The translations under genes were made by a program, and so were the position numbers. Of a stretch of DNA of 27,430 nucleotides, positions 7,839-17,135 are shown one piece after another (within the stretch, counting starts at the first letter, position 1; each line of letters opens with the position of its first letter). Under the pieces are notes generated by a model. That model was not told the origin of the DNA. It saw only the letters and a program-made list of their open reading frames with translations, and ran no database searches. The stretch comes from Clostridia bacterium. GTDB taxonomy: Bacteria; Bacillota; Clostridia; Christensenellales; Aristaeellaceae. Location: the NCBI GenBank assembly GCA_045639455.1, contig JAZUDA010000045.1, positions 1 to 27,430 on the forward strand. The letters run 5' to 3'.

Positions 7839-8765
7839 TTATTCATTTTTCCGGAAATCCACCAGGTATTCCTCGTAACGCCTGCACCAGTAATCGAAGG
7901 ATACGTCATCCGCGGTGACCGTGACCCGGATGACATCCGCGTTCACTCGCTCCGCCTCCGTCTCCATACCGAACCAGTCAAAAACATCGTTCAGAGCGTT
8001 CTGCTTTGCGAGGAAGGTATGCTTCCTGGCGGCACCGTTGTACATGAAGGGATGGACATTCACATATTTTTGCAGATCGATGCCGTTTTCGCAACCCTCG
8101 ATTTCCGTCAGTTCCTTGGCAGGCTCCTCCGTCAGCTGAATATCCATAATCCGTTCAACACGGAAGTGGGAAATGTTGTCGTACTTGTCCACATTGCCCA
8201 GGAGGTAATACCGGCCGTTGGTGGTGAGGATATCGTAGGGATTCACCAGATATTCCCGTGGCGTGCCGTCCTCCCGGCAGCGGTAGTGAAGCTTTTTGTC
8301 GATATCATAGTTGCCGTAGTAGAAAAGCACCTTTTTCTCCCCGGCAATTGCCTCATGCAGCACATCCAGCGAGAAAAGAAACTGCGGATTGGCCGGACGC
8401 AGCTGACTGTTGTCCTGATTCGCAGCATACCAGCTGCCGCCCAGCAGAGAGACCTTTCGAATCATTTCGTCCCGCTGGGCCGCCGTAATGCCGGGTGCGG
8501 TGCGCAGGATATCCACCAGCAGGTTCAGTTCCGCCGGGCAGAAATCATGCTCGTAATACCAGCCCTTGTCAAAGCAGACCGGATACCCGGCCTCGACCAG
8601 ATCGTCCAGATTTTTCCGGATGCTTTTCCGGACGTAGGTCTTGCCCGTTTCCTTCTCCACAAGGTCGATAATATCCTGCTGGCGGACCCGATGATCCTCG
8701 TCCGTATATTTCTTGAGGATTTCCAAAATGGCATATCCTTCCTGCTTATGCGTCCCGGCTGCCAT
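7839..8765 (-). CDS. WYL-domain transcriptional regulator (N-terminal wHTH)
   Basis: Start reassigned to MAAGTHK at 8765 (RBS AGGCGGGTG). AILEILKKYTDEDH...QDIIDLVE wHTH region; WYL core YLVNPYDILTTNGRYYLLGNVDKYDNISHFRVERIMDI; C-terminal FDWFG. Confidence 0.88.
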   Translation of the reverse strand: MAAGTHKQEGYAILEILKKYTDEDHRVRQQDIIDLVEKETGKTYVRKSIRKNLDDLVEAGYPVCFDKGWYYEHDFCPAELNLLVDILRTAPGITAAQRDEMIRKVSLLGGSWYAANQDNSQLRPANPQFLFSLDVLHEAIAGEKKVLFYYGNYDIDKKLHYRCREDGTPREYLVNPYDILTTNGRYYLLGNVDKYDNISHFRVERIMDIQLTEEPAKELTEIEGCENGIDLQKYVNVHPFMYNGAARKHTFLAKQNALNDVFDWFGMETEAERVNADVIRVTVTADDVSFDYWCRRYEEYLVDFRKNE

Positions 8766-8797
8766 GACGCTCACCCGCCTTGTTATATGATGTATTA

Positions 8798-8826
8798 AGG
8801 ATACCACACTTCCCGGCGACTCGCAA
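8798..8826 (-). promoter_or_regulatory. sigmaA promoter for the WYL gene
   Basis: Minus strand TTGCGA, 17 bp spacer, TGg-TATCCT. Confidence 0.5.
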
Positions 8827-8901
8827 CAGCGAAGTGGCCCAGCCGCGGGTTGATGTAACCGTTTGGGGACATTTCTATCTTTGTGCAGCCTTTTGAAAAA
8901 C

Positions 8902-8937
8902 AAAAAAAGCTCCGACAAGAATCTGTCGGAGCTTTTT
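8902..8937 (-). terminator. Rho-independent terminator after the CsoR-family gene
   Basis: AAAAAAAGCTCCGACA-agaatc-TGTCGGAGCTTTTT. Confidence 0.85.
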
Positions 8938-8944
8938 CCTTTTA

Positions 8945-9217
8945 TTACTGCATATTGGCGAAGCGTTCGATTGCCTTGGCGAATTTCTGAAGCGCCTCGG
9001 TATCGCCCGCTGCCACCGCGTCACGGACGCAGTGATTGATATGGCCCTCCAGGATTACCTGTCCTGCCTTGTTCAGCGCAGATTTGGCGGCGCTAATCTG
9101 GCTGAGCACATCCTCGCACGGCACGTCCTCATCAATCATCCGGTTGATTGCCTCTATCTGCCCGATAATCCGTTTCAGGCGGTTGTGCAGCTTTTCTCTG
9201 TCCATGCATTGTACCAT
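8945..9217 (-). CDS. CsoR/RcnR-family metal-sensing transcriptional repressor
   Basis: NRLKRIIGQIEAINRMI, VPCEDVLSQISAAKSAL, LEGHINHCV (Cys/His/Cys ligand pattern). Start placed at MVQC, 8 nt after GGAGG; 9238 is an alternative start. Confidence 0.88.
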   Translation of the reverse strand: MVQCMDREKLHNRLKRIIGQIEAINRMIDEDVPCEDVLSQISAAKSALNKAGQVILEGHINHCVRDAVAAGDTEALQKFAKAIERFANMQ

Positions 9218-9252
9218 CGTCATTGCCTCCAAATCCATCTATTCAGAATAAA

Positions 9253-10675: not shown

Positions 10676-10704
10676 GTTGTACCATTTCCCCGCGGGTTTG
10701 TCAA
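10676..10704 (-). promoter_or_regulatory. Probable sigmaA promoter for GNAT-DMT-CsoR
   Basis: Minus strand TTGACA (overlaps the hydrolase TGA stop), 17 bp spacer, TGg-TACAAC. The -10 lacks the final T. Confidence 0.5.
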
Positions 10705-11324
10705 TTCTTCCGTTGTCCGTTCTTTTCTTCCGTCAGCCACCCGTCCAGGAACGCCATCTGCTCCGGCGTATGGAACCAGTGCTCCCCGCCCGGCATGACC
10801 CGCAGCTCCGCGCCTGTTTGCTCAGCGAAGGCGCGGACGGTATCGTAACTCTGCAGGTGATCCTTTTCGCCGTACAGGACGCAGGTCGGCGTAAGCCAGC
10901 GGTTGGGCGTATTTCTTACGCGGCACAGCACATTCCAGGACAGCTTTTCCCCGAAAGCCGTTTCAACGGTACCTTTTTCCCGCAGTTCCTGCTCCGTTAC
11001 CCCTGCCCAGCCCATCATGTCCAGAATCAGCCGCTCCATATTGACGATGGGCGATATAAAATACGCCCGCTCAACGGGCGCGTCGGAAAGCGACATCATG
11101 GCATACCAGGCGCCAATGCTGTTTGCCACCATGGTTACGGAATCATACGCCTGAAAAATTGGCGCAAAAAGGGCCGGGAATGCTTCCGCCGTTTCCAAGG
11201 GCGCGGCAGGCTCATATTCAAGCCCGATTACATCCGCGTCCGGAAACAGCGGCCGGTAGTGTTCTGCCTCACCGGCATTCCCGCCCTTTCCGTGGATATA
11301 GACAATTGCTTGTTTTCTGTTCAT
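10701..11324 (-). CDS. Alpha/beta-fold hydrolase (esterase-like)
   Basis: IVYIHGKGG oxyanion region, nucleophile motif ANSIG, YGEKD, GGEHWF catalytic His. Start placed at MNRKQ (11324); the ORF-track extension to 11372 is not needed. Confidence 0.85.
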   Translation of the reverse strand: MNRKQAIVYIHGKGGNAGEAEHYRPLFPDADVIGLEYEPAAPLETAEAFPALFAPIFQAYDSVTMVANSIGAWYAMMSLSDAPVERAYFISPIVNMERLILDMMGWAGVTEQELREKGTVETAFGEKLSWNVLCRVRNTPNRWLTPTCVLYGEKDHLQSYDTVRAFAEQTGAELRVMPGGEHWFHTPEQMAFLDGWLTEEKNGQRKN

Positions 11325-11378: not shown

Positions 11379-11588
11379 TTACTTGTCGGATTTTTCCTCG
11401 CCGGGAAACTTGTTTTCACCAATCGTGCCCGCCGCGATTTCAAGCTCGCCCGCCGCGTTGACAAAGCCCAGGTCGTCATCGGACAGCTCCGCGGCGTAAC
11501 GGTTTTCCGTTTCCGCAATCAGCTTCGCCAGGGAGGTATTTTTTTCAAACTTCTGATAATCAAACATCGCGTTCAGTTTCTTTTCCAT
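11379..11588 (-). CDS. 69-aa peptide with a double-glycine-type leader motif (ELSDDDLGFVNAAG); putative PCAT substrate or anti-sigma
   Basis: RBS AAGAAGG 7 nt before ATG 11588. E-L-S-D-D-D-L-x-x-V-x-A-A-G matches the C39 peptidase leader pattern. Directly downstream of an ECF sigma factor and a C39-containing ABC exporter. Confidence 0.8.
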   Translation of the reverse strand: MEKKLNAMFDYQKFEKNTSLAKLIAETENRYAAELSDDDLGFVNAAGELEIAAGTIGENKFPGEEKSDK

Positions 11589-11625
11589 GAAAATGCCTTC
11601 TTTCTTCAATGTGGTTTCACTGATT

Positions 11626-11652
11626 TATACGATACGAAAGGCAAAATGGTTA
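11626..11652 (-). promoter_or_regulatory. Putative ECF-sigma promoter for the peptide gene
   Basis: Minus strand TAAC-catttTgcctttcgtat(17 nt)-CGTATA, matching the AAC-N16/17-CGT pattern of Bacillota ECF sigmas. It overlaps the sigma TAA stop. Confidence 0.55.
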
Positions 11653-12138
11653 ATGCTTTTCAAAATAATCTTTCAGTTTTTTCAACGCGTTGTTCTGCAG
11701 CACCTTTACATAGGCATAGGAGATGCCCATATGCTCGGCGATTTCCTTCAAGGTTTTGCCGGAGTAGTACCGCAGAATGATAATATCCCGTTCCCGCTCA
11801 TCCAGCTTTTTGAGGCCTGATGCCAGCGTCTCCAGCGTCTCCGCGTTGCACACTTCCTCCTCAACATCGGTTCCGTCATCCCGTGTTTCCGGAATTTCCC
11901 CGAATACCTTGCGGGTGCGGAAATAGTCAATCAGTCGGTTGCGGGTAATGGTATAAATCCAGGTGGAAAGGGAGGCCTTCGTTTCGTCAAAGCTGTCGAT
12001 TTTTTCGTACACCTTGACGAATACATCCGCGGCCAGGTCCTCCGCCATCGTGGCGTTATTGATTTTCGAGCGGATATATCCGCACACCTTGCCGTAATAA
12101 TCGCTGTAGATTTTTTCCTTTTGCTCGTCGGTCATCAT
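11650..12138 (-). CDS. ECF-subfamily sigma-70 factor
   Basis: 162 aa. Region 2: AEDLAADVFVKVY, SLSTWIYTITRNRLIDYFR. Region 4: LDERERDIIILRYYSGKTLKEIAEHMGIS. RBS AAGGAGG. Confidence 0.93.
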   Translation of the reverse strand: MMTDEQKEKIYSDYYGKVCGYIRSKINNATMAEDLAADVFVKVYEKIDSFDETKASLSTWIYTITRNRLIDYFRTRKVFGEIPETRDDGTDVEEEVCNAETLETLASGLKKLDERERDIIILRYYSGKTLKEIAEHMGISYAYVKVLQNNALKKLKDYFEKH

Positions 12139-12162
12139 GTCGACATCCCCTCCTTGTATTGA

Positions 12163-14358
12163 TTATGCTTCTTCCACGTCCACCCTCTGACGTTCCACCA
12201 GCTTGGCGAAGGCGCCGTTAAGGGCAATCAATTCTTCATAAGTACCGTCCTCCAGAATCTTTCCCCCGTCCAGGTAGATAATGCGATCGGCATGCTGAAT
12301 GGTGGAAAGGCGGTGGGCAATCACAATTCGCGTACACTTGAGCGCGTCAATCGCCCGGGTGATTTTCCGCTGGGTAATGTTATCCAGCGCGCTGGTGGCC
12401 TCATCAAATATCAGAATCTTCGGGCTGGGGGCAACAGCCCTGGCAATCATCAGCCGCTGCTTCTGCCCGCCGGAAATGCCGCCCTGGCCCTCGCCGATGA
12501 CCGTATGCATTCCCATCGGCATGGCACGGATATCATCCGCGACGGACGCGATTTCCGCCGCCTCCCATGCCCGCTGAAGCCCCATCTGCGGCGCGGTCAG
12601 CACGATGTTGGAATAGATGTCGCCCAGGAACAGCTTGCCGTCCTGCATCACCACGCCGATTTTTCTGCGGAGGGATTCCGGGTCGATTTTGTTGATATCC
12701 TTCTGATCGTAGGCGATTAGGCCCTTCTGCGGCGTTTCAAAGCCCAACAGCAACCGGACCAGCGTACTCTTGCCGCATCCGGTGGGGCCCACAATGGCCA
12801 GATACTCGCCCGGCTTGACCCGCAGGGAAAGGTCGTCAATCACATTGGGCATAGCCTCGTCATAGCGGAAGGAAACGTGGGTCATTTCGATTCCGCCCTG
12901 AAGCTCCGTAATATTTTCCTTCCCGTCATGCACCTCCGGCTCCGCCTCCATAATCGGCTTTGCCATTTCCAGTATCGGGCGGATATTGGCCACCGTCATC
13001 GCGATGGACACAACGGACAGAAAGGCGGACGATACCATACCGTACGCGGAATTGAACGCGTAATAATCCGCCACGCCCACACCGCTTGACAGGGCTGTAG
13101 CATAGAGGATCATTGTACCACCAAGGGAAAGCGCCATGCTGAGGGTACCGCTCAGCTTCAGGAACGCGGGCGGGTTGTAATTCAGCTGCGCCTCACGGGC
13201 ATACTGCCTTGCCCAGCGGGAGAACATCCGTTTTTCCGCGCCCGCCAGCTTGATTTTCTGTATGCCGGTGATGGTGGAATAGGTCAGGCCGCTGGTTTGG
13301 GACGCGACGTCCATCCGTTCCCGGGAAATCTTTGTCTGCAGCAGTGTCGTTGCCAGAGAAAGCGCCAGGGTGGAGGCGGTAATCAGCAAGGACGGCACCA
13401 CAAGGGAGGGTGCAAAGGCAAAAATCTGCCCGATATAAATCAGCGAGAACAGCGATGTCAGCCCCGTCATGCCGATTGTGCTGAACAGGGTGGAGCACAG
13501 CGACTGCACATAGGAGGCTCGCTGCGACAGCTCGCCCGCGGAAAAGCTGCGGAAAAAGGACGGCGGCAGACTCATCATCCGGTTCATAACCGCGGCCTGA
13601 ACGGCGATGTTCTGCTTGATGCCGATTCGGGAATTGATCAGCCCCCGGAAGGCATTGAAGCACAGGCTGCTGACGGAAAAGGCCACCATAAAGACAGCGA
13701 GAGAAATCAGCACCTGCAGGTTGCCGGAATCCAGCACATCGCTGAACAGCCAGCGGGTAAAGAGCGGGGACAGCAGGCCCAGTGCGGAAGACAGCGCCAT
13801 CAGCGTCAGGTACAGGACGATGTCCGACACGCTCAGCTGCTTCACCATGAATTTCAGCAGGTCTGCCACCTTCAGCGGCTTTTGCGGAAGCGGCTCATAA
13901 AAGCAGACTGCCTCCCGGTCCAGCAGTTTCTCGGTTTTCCGGTTCATGCGGCGCCTCTCGCCGGTTTTGAAATTAATCAGCCGGTATCCGGAAAGGTTGT
14001 CCGGAATCAGCGCGACCGCGCTGCCGTCCTCCTTCAAGGTGCCAAGCATGGCACCTACCGCGCAGCGGTACCAGCCTTTTTCCAGCGTGACGGTACGGCT
14101 TTTGATGCCGAAGGGGCGCATGCGGTATTCGATTTGCTCGTCCACCGTCTTGATCCGGTCCGGAAGCTCTTCCGACTTCGGCTTGCAATGGTAAAATTTC
14201 AATATTTCGTCGATGGCAGAGCCGGCGATTTCGTTCTGGCTCAGCGCGTCCCGCAGACGGTTCCCCATCACGGCGTTCGCAATGGAATCTATGGCGTCCG
14301 CAAAATCGGCGTTGTCGGATTCCGCACGGGTACGCAGCTGCTCGTCAAACCAACTCAT
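12163..14358 (-). CDS. NHLP-type export ABC transporter, permease/ATPase subunit with a degenerate C39-like N-terminus
   Basis: N-terminal ~150 aa lacks the QxxxxECG motif; six-TM domain; Walker A GPTGCGKST; signature ISGGQKQR; Walker B ILIFDEATSALD; IAHRLST. Confidence 0.9.
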   Translation of the reverse strand: MSWFDEQLRTRAESDNADFADAIDSIANAVMGNRLRDALSQNEIAGSAIDEILKFYHCKPKSEELPDRIKTVDEQIEYRMRPFGIKSRTVTLEKGWYRCAVGAMLGTLKEDGSAVALIPDNLSGYRLINFKTGERRRMNRKTEKLLDREAVCFYEPLPQKPLKVADLLKFMVKQLSVSDIVLYLTLMALSSALGLLSPLFTRWLFSDVLDSGNLQVLISLAVFMVAFSVSSLCFNAFRGLINSRIGIKQNIAVQAAVMNRMMSLPPSFFRSFSAGELSQRASYVQSLCSTLFSTIGMTGLTSLFSLIYIGQIFAFAPSLVVPSLLITASTLALSLATTLLQTKISRERMDVASQTSGLTYSTITGIQKIKLAGAEKRMFSRWARQYAREAQLNYNPPAFLKLSGTLSMALSLGGTMILYATALSSGVGVADYYAFNSAYGMVSSAFLSVVSIAMTVANIRPILEMAKPIMEAEPEVHDGKENITELQGGIEMTHVSFRYDEAMPNVIDDLSLRVKPGEYLAIVGPTGCGKSTLVRLLLGFETPQKGLIAYDQKDINKIDPESLRRKIGVVMQDGKLFLGDIYSNIVLTAPQMGLQRAWEAAEIASVADDIRAMPMGMHTVIGEGQGGISGGQKQRLMIARAVAPSPKILIFDEATSALDNITQRKITRAIDALKCTRIVIAHRLSTIQHADRIIYLDGGKILEDGTYEELIALNGAFAKLVERQRVDVEEA

Positions 14359-14372
14359 TCGCAGACACCTCC

Positions 14373-16544
14373 TTACTCCGCACTGACCAGTTCGCGGTAC
14401 ATTTCGCTGTTTTCCATCAGCTCCCGATGGGTTCCGCGGTCGATAATCTCGCCCTTGTCCATCACGATGATTTCATCGCAGGAACGGATGGTGGAAAGCC
14501 GGTGGGCGATAACGATGCAGGCAATGCCGCGGTCGCGGATGGCCTTCACTACGCCGTATTCCGTTTTTGCGTCCAGCGCGCTGGTGGCCTCATCCAAAAT
14601 AATCACCGTCGGGTCCTGCGCCAGGGCGCGGGCAATCTCGATTCGCTGCCGCTGGCCGCCGGAAAAGTCCTTGCCGCCCTCCGTCAGCTTATGCCGATAA
14701 CCTTTCGGCCGCTGCATGATATCCTCATGAATCTGCGCGTCCCGGGCCGCCAGGATCATTTCGAAATCCTCGATGCTGTCATCCCACATCTTGATATTAT
14801 CGGCAATCGTATCCTCAAACAGAATGATATCCTGATCCACCACCGCCACAGACCCGCGGAATACGTTTTTCGGGATCTGATTCATTTTTTTGCCGTCAAA
14901 CAAGATTTCGCCGCTCCACGGCTGATACAGCCCGGCAATCAGCTTCGCCATGGTGGATTTGCCGCAACCGGAGCCGCCTACGATGGCCACGCTTTTTCCG
15001 GGTTCGAGGCACATATTGAAATCCTTGATCAGCGGCTCCGCCAGGGGCGAATAGCCAAAGACCACGTGATTCAGTTCGATTTTTCCGGTCAGCTTGCCAT
15101 AGTCGTCCGTATCCTCGTTTTCATTAAAAACGATATCCTCCGGGTATTCCATCACGTCTTCTACCCGCTCCATCTCGGTACGCATTTCCTGCAGCGTCTG
15201 GCCGGCGGAAATCATCGTCTGGGCAGGCGACATAAAGGAGGCAAGGAAACCTTGAGACGCCATAATCATACCGATGGAGAACTCGCCCCGCATGGTCAGC
15301 CACACGCCCAGGAACAGCACCGCGTTGTTGGCAAGCATGGAGACAAACTGGGGAATCATGCCCAGATACTCATTGAGTTTCAGGAATTTCACCTGCTGCG
15401 TATTTACGCCCGCCTGATAGCCGGACCATTTTTTGAAATAGCCGTTTTCAGCACCTGACGCCTTGATGGTTTCGATCATTTCAATACCGGCTACCGTGGC
15501 GGAGGACAGCTTCGCGCTGTCACGCATGGAAACGCGGGTCACGTTAATCCGCTTCTGGGAAATATAGTTTGACACCGCAGCGTTGATAAACAAAGAGGCA
15601 AGCCCGATTACCGTCAGGAAAACGCTGTAGCGCAGCATCACCACCAGATAAAAGACCATCATCACCGAGTTCAGCAGAAGCGGCGCGAAGGTGCCGATCA
15701 GGGTGTTGGCGATAGATGCGTTCGCGCCCTGCCGCCCCTGAATATCCCCTGCCATACGCTGGGAATAGAATTTCATCGGCAGACGGAGGATTTTCCACAT
15801 GTAGGTGGCGTTGCCCACCGCTGCCATCTTGCCGTTAATGCGCAGCGAATAAACCGCCTGCAGAGCGGACATGATAATATCGATCAGGTTGAACGCGCCC
15901 AGCAAAATCAAGAAGGGCGTTATCCACTCCGGATCCGTCCCTGTCAGCAGATGGTCCAGAAAAACCCGTGAAAATCCGGGCTGGACAAACCCCATCAGCG
16001 CCGCGATGACACCTGTCAGCACCGTGAAAGCGATGGCGGTGCCCGTTCCCTTCAGACGTTTTGCCGCGAATTCCTTCATGCTCTTCGGCTTGCCGGAGGG
16101 GACAAACGCCTCCGTAGGCTCAAACTGCAGGCAGATTCCCGTAAAAGCCTCGTCAAACATTTCCATAGAAACGCTGTAGGAGCCCTTCGCCGGGTCATTC
16201 AGCCAGGCTTTCCCGCCTTTGAAGCCGTTGAGCACCACAAAGTGGTTGAAATTCCAGTGAATAATGCAGGGGAAGCTGCCGTGTTCCTTCAGCGCGTCCG
16301 GCTCATACCGGTAGCCCTTCGCCTCCAGGCCGTAGAAGCGGGCAGCCTTGAGGATGTTGCGGGCATTGGAGCCGTCTCTGGACACGCCGCAGTCCTCACG
16401 GACCTGCTCCAGCGGAATCCACTTACGATAATAGGCCAGGATCATGCAAAGGCACGCTGCGCCGCATTCCAGCGCCTCCAGCTGCATCACAACCGGAACA
16501 TTGGCTGTGCCCTTCGTCACCGGCTTTTTGATTTTCTCCGCCAT
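14373..16544 (-). CDS. NHLP-type export ABC transporter with an intact C39 peptidase (PCAT)
   Basis: VMQLEALECGAACL (Gln, catalytic Cys), HWNFNHFVV (His), NDPA (Asp); Walker A GGSGCGKST; FSGGQRQR; IILDEATSALD. Confidence 0.93.
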   Translation of the reverse strand: MAEKIKKPVTKGTANVPVVMQLEALECGAACLCMILAYYRKWIPLEQVREDCGVSRDGSNARNILKAARFYGLEAKGYRYEPDALKEHGSFPCIIHWNFNHFVVLNGFKGGKAWLNDPAKGSYSVSMEMFDEAFTGICLQFEPTEAFVPSGKPKSMKEFAAKRLKGTGTAIAFTVLTGVIAALMGFVQPGFSRVFLDHLLTGTDPEWITPFLILLGAFNLIDIIMSALQAVYSLRINGKMAAVGNATYMWKILRLPMKFYSQRMAGDIQGRQGANASIANTLIGTFAPLLLNSVMMVFYLVVMLRYSVFLTVIGLASLFINAAVSNYISQKRINVTRVSMRDSAKLSSATVAGIEMIETIKASGAENGYFKKWSGYQAGVNTQQVKFLKLNEYLGMIPQFVSMLANNAVLFLGVWLTMRGEFSIGMIMASQGFLASFMSPAQTMISAGQTLQEMRTEMERVEDVMEYPEDIVFNENEDTDDYGKLTGKIELNHVVFGYSPLAEPLIKDFNMCLEPGKSVAIVGGSGCGKSTMAKLIAGLYQPWSGEILFDGKKMNQIPKNVFRGSVAVVDQDIILFEDTIADNIKMWDDSIEDFEMILAARDAQIHEDIMQRPKGYRHKLTEGGKDFSGGQRQRIEIARALAQDPTVIILDEATSALDAKTEYGVVKAIRDRGIACIVIAHRLSTIRSCDEIIVMDKGEIIDRGTHRELMENSEMYRELVSAE

Positions 16545-16554
16545 ATCAGCAACC

Positions 16555-16977
16555 TCAATTCAAAATAAAGGATAAGGGCTTGTAGCTTCGGATAATGACC
16601 TTTCCTTCATAGAAGCCGTCGGGCAGAGCGGAATCCTCCGACAGGACACAGGCGTAGCCCATATCCTCTTTCGCGCCGATTTGCGTGATGACCGCCTCTT
16701 CCGTTTCCCCGAACCGGACGATTTGCCCCTCCCGGATGGAGGAAACATCTTCCGGCGCGATGAAGCAGACCGTGCCACCACCCTCAATGCGGACGGTGGA
16801 CGGCACGGTGCTGTCCACCTGCCCGAAGATGCCCCATACGCAGGCGCCCGCCAGCAAAACAATCACGCTGACCAGCAGCAGCCACACGCCCGGGTTGGAC
16901 ACTCGGATAAAATCATCCAGGTTTTCGGGAGACTTTACTTTATCAAGGCTTTTCTTTCGGAATATTTGTTCACTCAT
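16555..16977 (-). CDS. Miniature NHLP-system secretion (HlyD/MFP-like) accessory protein
   Basis: N-terminus IFRKKSLDKVKSPENLDDFIRVSNPGVWLLL...WGIFG and C-terminus GKVIIRSYKPLSFILN both recall NHLP secretion proteins, but the protein is only 140 aa. RBS AAGGAG. Confidence 0.78.
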   Translation of the reverse strand: MSEQIFRKKSLDKVKSPENLDDFIRVSNPGVWLLLVSVIVLLAGACVWGIFGQVDSTVPSTVRIEGGGTVCFIAPEDVSSIREGQIVRFGETEEAVITQIGAKEDMGYACVLSEDSALPDGFYEGKVIIRSYKPLSFILN

Positions 16978-17058
16978 ACGTCCGTACTCCTTTTATTAAC
17001 AGCGGTCAGCGCCCCTTCGTACACGCGCGGGTGTTTTCCCGATAGACTCGTACAGTTT

Positions 17059-17087
17059 ATTATATATGAATTTTCCCGTCAATTCAA
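17059..17087 (-). promoter_or_regulatory. sigmaA promoter for the exporter-sigma operon
   Basis: Minus strand TTGAAT, 17 bp spacer, TATAAT, just downstream of a terminator. Confidence 0.7.
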
Positions 17088-17110
17088 GAGAAAGCGAGCC
17101 CAGCGCGCGC

Positions 17111-17135
17111 AAAAAAAGCCCGGCGCGCGCCGGGC
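17111..17135 (-). terminator. Rho-independent terminator after the nitroreductase gene
   Basis: Perfect palindrome GCCCGGCGCGCGCCGGGC followed by 7 T on the minus strand. Confidence 0.8.

Follow-up and report, generated by a model that had tools for sequence, protein, structure and literature searches.

Peptidase-containing ATP-binding cassette (ABC) transporters (PCATs) and their double-glycine (GG) cargo are, to our knowledge, abundant in gut and rumen Clostridia, and the control of their expression is largely unexplained outside lactic acid bacteria. In lactic acid bacteria and streptococci, bacteriocin production is under three-component regulation, in which an induction peptide acts together with a histidine kinase and a response regulator, as in the ComC/ComAB and BlpC/BlpAB systems. 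In enterobacteria, FlgM, the anti-sigma factor of FliA, is exported by the flagellar apparatus. Haft et al. (2010) reportedly described the NHLM export cassette (TIGR03794, TIGR03796 and TIGR03797) together with NHLP/Nif11 precursors (TIGR03793 and TIGR03798). For the PCAT LahT, recognition involves the last 13 residues of the leader, with V-4, L-7 and L-12, and natural cleavage sites end in GG, GA or GS, the site taking only small residues because the pocket narrows there (PMC6363468). In the microbisporicin system, with MibX and MibW, an extracytoplasmic function (ECF) sigma factor controls ribosomal-peptide genes, and peptide export has been proposed to release the sigma factor (PMC4203916). 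The locus analysed here combines a LahT-type exporter with an ECF sigma factor and a leader-bearing small protein of 69 aa. It lies in a 27,430-nucleotide stretch of a Clostridia bacterium of the Aristaeellaceae, order Christensenellales (contig JAZUDA010000045.1, positions 1 to 27,430, assembly GCA_045639455.1), hereafter the window. The comparisons performed indicate that this locus is very probably the export-and-control hub of a sigma-dependent double-glycine secretome. They also give a nearly even chance to the proposal that the small protein is an exporter-coupled anti-sigma factor, its binding to sigma being putative.

Five closely packed genes on the minus strand (11379-16977), with gaps of 10, 14, 24 and 61 bp, make up the locus. 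In the direction of transcription they encode a 140-aa mini membrane fusion protein (mini-MFP; 16555-16977), the 723-aa PCAT ABC1 (14373-16544), its 731-aa partner permease/ATPase ABC2 (12163-14358), a dedicated ECF sigma factor of 162 aa (11650-12138) and the small protein (11379-11588). The exporter-sigma operon is preceded by a sigmaA-type promoter, TTGAAT-17-TATAAT (17059-17087, minus strand), with 10 of 12 consensus matches. An intrinsic terminator on the same strand (17108-17135; seven G-C pairs, stem 17135-17118 followed by a T run) ends the upstream nitroreductase-like gene and forms the 5' boundary of the unit. The first-pass annotation of the window had described the five genes with their spacing, the terminator and the promoter, and all of them were confirmed, as was the motif of the small protein, which contains ELSDDDLGFVNAAG.

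The neighbourhood of the small-protein gene was compared in 80 genome loci and the window, by tblastn and unbiased clustering of neighbouring open reading frames. Adjacency was counted in the 68 loci flanked by 1.5 kb or more on each side, and pump linkage in the 41 loci whose flanks reach 8 kb or more on each side. A sigma ortholog was found to adjoin the small-protein gene in 57 of the 68 loci, lying upstream in 23, downstream in 33 and divergently in 1. Among the 41 loci with longer flanks, the ABC pair was present in 22 and the sigma gene in 31; both occurred in 21, sigma only in 10, the pump only in 1, and neither in 9. The small protein is therefore linked more tightly to sigma (57/68) than to the pump (22/41). 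This coupling, together with the sigma-type promoter described below, agrees with the earlier proposal that the small-protein gene occupies the position of an anti-sigma gene, and no other conserved anti-sigma candidate was found in the neighbourhoods of the loci compared. The survey also corroborated the view that exporter trio, ECF sigma factor and leader-bearing small protein form a conserved module, which lacks tailoring enzymes in most loci. The sigma factor itself matches TIGR02937 (E 3.5e-33), with regions Sigma70_r2 and Sigma70_r4, and belongs to a family of 1,129 clusters at E<=1e-25. Its best fold match is SigW of Bacillus subtilis, with further matches to SigK, SigE and AlgU.

The same association was found at the genome level. 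Sigma orthologs (E<=1e-25) occur in 2 of 150 genomes of the window's order, with the peptide gene beside each of them. All 10 genomes with a peptide-sigma pair not linked to a pump carry a TIGR03796 protein above the cut-off elsewhere, against a background of 6 in the 150 sampled genomes of the order. Pump-bearing genomes devoid of the peptide exist, and 8 of 9 genomes with an "orphan" peptide hold one sigma ortholog elsewhere, some of these orthologs being flanked by a divergent Ala-Ala peptide of their own. It follows from this pattern of co-occurrence that the small protein implies sigma and pump, whereas the pump does not imply the small protein.

In both gene orders, peptide-then-sigma and sigma-then-peptide, small-protein genes are preceded by a conserved element of approximately AAAA..TAGCCATTTT-N-TCGTATAAA, GCC and CGTATA being 16 bases apart, which gives the consensus TAGCC-N16-CGTATAAA. 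Its CGTATA -10 presumably resembles that of B. subtilis sigmaW promoters. In the window, this ECF-type promoter (11663-11620, minus strand) takes up the 61-bp gap that separates sigma from the small-protein gene, its -35-like TAACC (11652-11648) sharing bases with the sigma stop codon and its -10-like CGTATAAA lying at 11631-11624. From co-occurrence and position, we infer that the promoter is read by the dedicated sigma factor. The pump operon is preceded in many homologous loci by sigmaA-like promoters (TTGxxx/(TG)nTATAAT) upstream of the mini-MFP gene, and no ECF-type motif was found at that place. A position weight matrix (PWM) built from 30 sites recovered the element in front of at least 45 family genes, including 16 that had not contributed to the matrix. 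Among the loci compared, GG-leader cargo genes are likewise preceded by it in L006, L010 (two genes), L024, L041, L064, L065, L067 and L072.

In the genome of the window, 6 PWM matches were obtained at a scan threshold of 24, compared with 0 in the shuffled genome. They precede the small-protein gene, a gene for a 56-aa class-IIc-like GG-leader peptide (contig C265), one for a 114-aa Cys-rich GG-leader protein (C335) and three genes for signal-peptide proteins; one further GG-leader gene falls just below the threshold, at 22. When a strict pattern was searched in the cultured Butyrivibrio sp. Su6 and AE2015, it gave 7 and 8 matches, compared with 1 and 2 for the reversed control; the genes behind the pattern matches encode the small protein, three GG-leader peptides, two small hydrophobic peptides and a lipoprotein. 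Across the 150 genomes of the window's order, including those that lack the sigma, the strict IUPAC pattern looked about as frequent as its reversed control, with mostly 0-2 matches per genome for each (totals not summed). The strict pattern is unusable as a test of presence because it misses degenerate sites such as the TAACC of the window, and the PWM is more useful. Many of the cargo proteins behind the shared promoter carry two CxxC pairs. Small GG-leader cargo of this kind, zinc-ribbon-like and not typical of bacteriocins, is encoded in L090 (2147-2491), L024 (near 8039, minus strand), L064 (from 586), L112 and L115. In the two Butyrivibrio strains (L093/L114 and L107/L109), the motif also precedes genes for conserved leaderless hydrophobic peptides of 25 and 45 aa, perhaps partners of an immunity-like or membrane-active kind.

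When the genome of the window was scanned with the leader register taken into account, at least nine further genes for GG-leader small proteins emerged, located on contigs C265, C335, C21, C368, C140 (three genes), C86 and C252. Three of them have the promoter motif with a PWM score that reaches the threshold of 24. Since ABC1 is the sole TIGR03796 match in the assembly and the GG-leader genes are scattered, the pump probably serves a dispersed secretome. The first-pass annotation had allowed for substrates encoded elsewhere in the genome, and these genes are in line with that expectation. They also qualify the role of exporter substrate that it gave to the small protein, which, with at least nine other GG-leader genes present, is not the only or main one.

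The small protein belongs to a large family. A word-indexed search returned 58 relatives, and a profile search of 1.84 billion representatives recovered 1,235 clusters (defined at 50% identity) at E<=0.001 and 605 at the stricter E<=1e-10, every one consisting of small proteins. Species-representative genomes place relatives in at least 126 species, among the Oscillospiraceae, Acutalibacteraceae, Lachnospiraceae, Butyrivibrio and Christensenellales. When the window peptide and 45 members were searched against Pfam and NCBIfam, no match to Nif11, TIGR03793, TIGR03798, an anti-sigma family or any other curated family was found at E<=10. Any anti-sigma role would therefore define a new anti-sigma family. 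In a protein-language-model search of the ESM Atlas, the nearest clusters were unnamed, and type-A lantibiotic and ComC precursors appeared at a greater distance as weak leads. The protein comprises a predicted helical hairpin (residues 1-31), a C39-recognition segment (ELSDDDLGFVNAA) and a variable acidic tail. Its first 47 residues are conserved in the family, reading roughly MEKKLKxLFEYQKFExNxRLAKLIAETExRYAxELSDDDLxxVxAAG, and extend far beyond the 13 residues needed by LahT (PMC6363468).

Counted from Ala45-Ala46 in ELSDDDLGFVNAA, the residues V-4, L-7 and L-12 fall exactly in the LahT register, and the three columns are invariant or nearly so across the family. When the register is counted from Gly47 instead, each of the three residues is off by one position. 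Ala45 and Ala46 are invariant, and Gly47, at +1, is conserved in about 90% of members. The cargo peptides of the same loci show V-A/S-G-G in the same columns, with Gly-Gly where the small protein has Ala-Ala. The small protein thus carries none of Gly-Gly, Gly-Ala and Gly-Ser at -2/-1, although the hydrophobic residues at -4, -7 and -12 are present in an acidic helix. The 22-aa product predicted in the first-pass annotation, and cleavage itself, consequently became uncertain, because the canonical register sets Ala-Ala, and not Gly-Gly, at the cleavage site.

This register, with invariant Ala-Ala facing the Gly-Gly of co-encoded cargo, could also be that of a leader mimic directed solely at the exporter: a pseudo-substrate, cut slowly or not at all, that would gate, prime or plug the PCAT and would not act on sigma, standing beside the sigma gene only as the main target of that sigma factor. 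Such a function is in keeping with the natural GG, GA and GS sites known for LahT (PMC6363468), as well as with the co-occurrence with TIGR03796 in 10 of 10 genomes. It seems improbable nonetheless, as the linkage of the small protein to sigma exceeds that to the pump and the conserved hairpin needs a partner, for which the N-terminal domain of ABC2 is a putative candidate; furthermore, the AlphaFold confidence of the hairpin rises when sigma is present.

Beyond the conserved N-terminus, the family alignment contains no conserved column. In 49 tails, length ranges from 7 to 50 aa (median 16), Asp and Glu make up 23% of residues and Cys 0.5%, and net charge is negative in 37. In five closely related pairs, dN/dS is much higher in the tail than in the leader, the tail evolving nearly neutrally. 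In the window, the tail (11379-11450) repeats the end of the tag (..FVNAAG ELEIAAG..), which creates a second L-x-I-A-A-G; most members lack this repeat. As the first-pass annotation had argued, the locus is not bacteriocin-like, in that the cores formed by these tails do not resemble bacteriocins.

The tails also bear on whether the 69-aa protein is ordinary cargo, that is, an exported peptide or the precursor of a peptide made on the ribosome and modified after translation (RiPP) with its maturase perhaps encoded elsewhere, sigma being a plain pathway-specific activator controlled elsewhere. A leader architecture of the GG type, a promoter common to the small protein and cargo genes, and radical-SAM/SPASM genes directly upstream in some loci (e.g., L042 and L019) are what such a precursor would show. 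No tailoring enzyme is broadly conserved across the 80 loci, however, and radical-SAM/SPASM genes occur in 5-6 of them, accompanied by separate Cys-rich Nif11-like precursors. The absence of tailoring enzymes claimed in the first-pass annotation therefore holds for the window and most loci, but not for these homologous ones, which carry both maturases and Nif11-like precursors. With tails poor in Cys, near-neutral in dN/dS and lacking any conserved residue, and with a strict sigma pairing and an invariant Ala-Ala unlike all cargo, the ordinary-cargo explanation is very improbable, and the reading of the 69-aa protein as a bacteriocin or RiPP precursor was judged unlikely.

The arrangement suggests a circuit in which the sigmaA-type promoter would drive the mini-MFP, the LahT-type PCAT, the partner ABC protein and the ECF sigma factor, and in which the predicted sigma regulon would comprise the pump cargo and the small protein, through the ECF-type promoter. 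The N-terminal helical hairpin of the small protein would bind and hold sigma, while its C39-recognition helix, in LahT register and with Ala-Ala in place of Gly-Gly, would be recognized by the peptidase domain of the pump. A pump with free capacity would capture, cut or export the small protein, freeing sigma; once cargo competes for the pump, the small protein would build up and sigma would be held again, so that cargo synthesis would be matched to export capacity in a FlgM/FliA-like manner. It is somewhat short of an even prospect that the small protein founds, in this way, a new family of anti-sigma factors that mimic ABC peptide exporter substrates, the hairpin holding the ECF sigma factor, the Ala-Ala pseudo-leader being captured by C39, and sigma activity reading the free capacity of the pump. 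The anti-sigma proposal is favoured because no unseen component is needed in the window, and because it accounts for the strict pairing with sigma, the sigma-type promoter of the peptide gene, the hairpin beyond the C39 tag, the unconstrained tail and the contrast between Ala-Ala and the cargo.

Structure models were compared with this proposal. In L024, sigma and peptide lie in one reading frame, and read-through gives a single chain with a 22-residue linker. The fusion was modelled with AlphaFold from 8 read-through fusions and 55 sigma rows, peptide-only rows having been dropped because MAFFT placed them on the sigma part. The resulting model (241 residues, 56 of them disordered) reached a pTM of 0.69, with leader residues 1-15 and 18-31 forming two helices (pLDDT 82-93) and with a pLDDT of at most 63 in the C39-recognition segment and tail. 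The window peptide modelled alone, with a deeper alignment, gave a mean pLDDT of 65 and a pTM of 0.32; its helices lay at 68-85, and not one residue reached 90. By our estimate, a pTM of 0.69 would need defined relative positions of sigma2, sigma4 and the hairpin. The models are weakly compatible with a hairpin docked on sigma and a free export tag. In Foldseek comparisons, the modelled sigma matched no form well, but the rmsd was smaller for compact forms bound to an anti-sigma factor (8-17 A) than for holoenzyme forms (22-26 A). The docking mode is left unsettled by these comparisons, because the matches in the Protein Data Bank (PDB) are ECF sigma chains only, with low TM-scores.

Several points weigh against the anti-sigma proposal. 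PCATs cut on the cytoplasmic side, and the hairpin would therefore stay in the cell. At least two paralogous small proteins per single sigma factor occur in several genomes, and the assignment of the promoter to sigma rests on co-occurrence and position. Support from AlphaFold is weak, because the comparison mixes different sequences and alignments, the linker is artificial, and a single chain modelled with no contact map has no readable contacts; the modelled arrangement of sigma2 and sigma4 matches no solved sigma/anti-sigma complex well (the rmsd of 8-17 A given above). Natural sigma-peptide fusions were not found, either in the 120 best-scoring sigma homologs (156-181 aa) or in the 150 best-scoring representatives of the small protein (57-150 aa), and no match to a known anti-sigma domain was obtained with the 45 family members at E<=10. 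Finally, a partner-switch module composed of STAS, membrane-PP2C and RsbW-like proteins could be the real control of sigma.

Genes of this kind (STAS, HAMP-PP2C, RsbW-like kinase and MatE-HATPase fusions) adjoin about 19 of the 80 loci, and in L048 and L061 an RsbW-like gene lies directly 3' of sigma. The module is not encoded in the window, but contig C98 of the same genome (L092; 1643-4177) holds a gene for a STAS protein of 99 aa and, directly after it, one for a membrane protein of at least 746 aa that runs off the contig end. The latter combines 5TMR_LYT, HAMP, SpoIIE/PP2C and RsbW-like HATPase_c_2 domains and is homologous to the partner-switch genes of the other loci.

Such a module would give a place to an autoinducer circuit, in which the small protein would be the precursor of an induction peptide like ComC, BlpC or PlnA, and the PCAT would cut it and export its variable tail. 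The tail could be sensed outside, for instance by a 5TMR_LYT-HAMP-PP2C phosphatase that would act through a STAS protein and an RsbW-like anti-sigma kinase to free sigma for the peptide and cargo genes. The circuit would account for a peptide gene under a sigma-type promoter and co-transcribed with sigma in the peptide-then-sigma order, as in autoinducing operons, and for hypervariable, pherotype-like tails; the position of the family near type-A lantibiotic and ComC precursors in the language-model search points in the same direction, as does the domain fusion on C98. Nevertheless, no sensor is conserved beside the pair in most loci, and PP2C homologs were detected in 9 of the 150 genomes of the order, overlapping only partially with the pump-bearing genomes. 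Left unexplained, moreover, are the conserved N-terminal hairpin of about 31-33 aa, which C39 recognition does not need, and the invariant Ala-Ala in the Gly-Gly position; the tails, for their part, are acidic, look disordered and can have as few as 7 aa. Although it deserves to be taken seriously, the autoinducer circuit is thus considered unlikely. As a whole, the secretion-coupled regulatory circuit put forward in the first-pass annotation is partly supported, by the conserved module, the coupling to sigma and a compatible AlphaFold chain, and weakened by a peptide that is not the main substrate, by Ala-Ala at the site and by the partner-switch alternative.

With regard to the exporter, ABC1 scores 920.4 bits against TIGR03796, above the cut-off of 853.3, and contains the Pfam domains C39, ABC_membrane and ABC_tran. 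Its Peptidase_C39 domain (PF03412; E 7.6e-33) is about 72% identical to LahT150 (PDB 6MPZ; 105 of 146 aligned residues), and Cys27 aligns with the catalytic Cys27 of LahT147/LahT150, in accordance with the earlier description of a C39-bearing ABC protein. On this sequence evidence, the pump is a LahT ortholog. ABC2 has TIGR03797 as by far its best family, covering profile positions 26-685 of 686, with 692.4 bits against a cut-off of 709.4. Neither Pfam nor a PDB sequence search detected a C39-like domain in its residues 1-170, which leaves the label "C39-dead", given to ABC2 in the first-pass annotation, unverified. The mini-MFP, which combines a single N-terminal membrane helix with a short outer domain, matches TIGR03794 over positions 1-54 of 421 only (38.9 bits, cut-off 156.2) and, at 140 aa, is not a full-length HlyD-type secretion protein of that family; its gene is kept in front of ABC1 in at least 36 loci. 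The NHLM families expected from the first reading were thus recovered for TIGR03796 and, as a partial match, for TIGR03794, with TIGR03797 just under its cut-off. In L061 (2504-5494) and L067 (3235-5282), about 2-3 kb of extra DNA separate the two ABC genes, which are adjacent elsewhere, and the stretch in L067 holds a Nif11-like precursor gene behind the shared promoter motif.

The insulation attributed to the unit was upheld on the 5' side but is not visible on the 3' side. Directly 3' of the peptide gene, no terminator was found, and a terminator-like hairpin (11081-11063) lies inside the reading frame of the next gene, which is alpha/beta-hydrolase-like (10701-11324, minus strand), has a weak Abhydrolase_6 match and is not conserved in other loci. 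In one RNA library, an 870-nt metatranscriptome contig over 10675-11545, at a depth of 10, spans the peptide gene and this hydrolase-like gene, which are possibly co-transcribed in this genome only. The depth of the sigma gene in that metatranscriptome was at most 1.7, a weak indication, as RNA-library contigs prove little; these depths would agree with the peptide gene having a promoter of its own. Among the genes of the window, none for a maturase, kinase or membrane anti-sigma factor was found. The search for a histidine kinase or response regulator, which also covered the conserved neighbour clusters of the sister loci, was negative. The other genes of the window have unrelated functions (sulfatase, sugar ABC importer, chromate transporters, CsoR-like repressor, EamA transporter, nitroreductase and amidohydrolase). 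Those for a WYL-domain protein (7839-8918) and a CsoR-type metal-sensing repressor (8945-9238), downstream on the same strand, are apparently unrelated to the export unit.

The analysis defines a large unnamed sigma family, a small-protein family and a promoter motif, the last of which predicts which scattered small genes belong to the secretome of the pump and thereby offers a handle on the exported peptides of uncultured gut bacteria. If the small protein is indeed an exporter-coupled anti-sigma factor, it would give an ABC exporter its first checkpoint of this kind, a FlgM-like device in a Gram-positive PCAT system that would set the output of a double-glycine mini-protein secretome in over 100 species of Clostridia from gut and rumen. 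Sigma factor, anti-sigma factor and promoter would then also make a compact, portable set for building synthetic circuits. Direct testing is possible in culture, since Butyrivibrio sp. Su6 and AE2015 have all parts of the system.

In the literature searched, no ECF sigma or anti-sigma factor was linked to a PCAT or a double-glycine peptide in Clostridia, and a leader-mimic small protein paired with an ECF sigma factor is present in none of the LahT, NHLM, FlgM/FliA, MibX/MibW and three-component systems. The promoter and its regulon, the genome-level co-occurrence and the fold comparison are new here. The closest exporter is that of the lah cluster of Lachnospiraceae bacterium C6A11, with which the locus shares, besides the similarity in the peptidase, the same leader logic and one pump for many diverse leader-tagged cargoes; the sigma factor, the Ala-Ala leader mimic and the shared promoter are absent from the description of that cluster (PMC6363468). 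In addition, the cargo of the present genome is dispersed and not clustered, and the window contains no lanthipeptide synthetase. The NHLM cassette has the same two ABC proteins in the same order, with an HlyD-like gene in front, and Nif11-like precursors are found in some sister loci. The window departs from it in an MFP cut to 140 aa, a small protein that matches neither leader family, the lack of a maturase and the addition of a dedicated sigma factor.

Among regulatory systems, the three-component systems resemble the locus in that a GG-leader regulatory peptide shares its PCAT and an inducible promoter with bacteriocin-like cargo, but here a kinase and a response regulator are lacking, an ECF sigma factor is the output, and the small protein has a long conserved hairpin and Ala-Ala at the cleavage site. 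In the MibX/MibW system, the anti-sigma factor MibW is of the conventional membrane type, the lantibiotic itself acts as the released signal, and no leader-bearing small protein is paired with sigma. The proteins of FlgM/FliA are unrelated to those described here, with a sigma-28 in place of an ECF sigma factor and type III export in place of an ABC transporter of the PCAT type, and binding and export are in the present case proposals. The proposed logic is nevertheless the one that FlgM/FliA exemplifies: the sigma gene would be expressed with the secretion apparatus, its antagonist would be placed under a sigma-dependent promoter and carry the secretion signal of that apparatus, and sigma activity would thereby report export competence.

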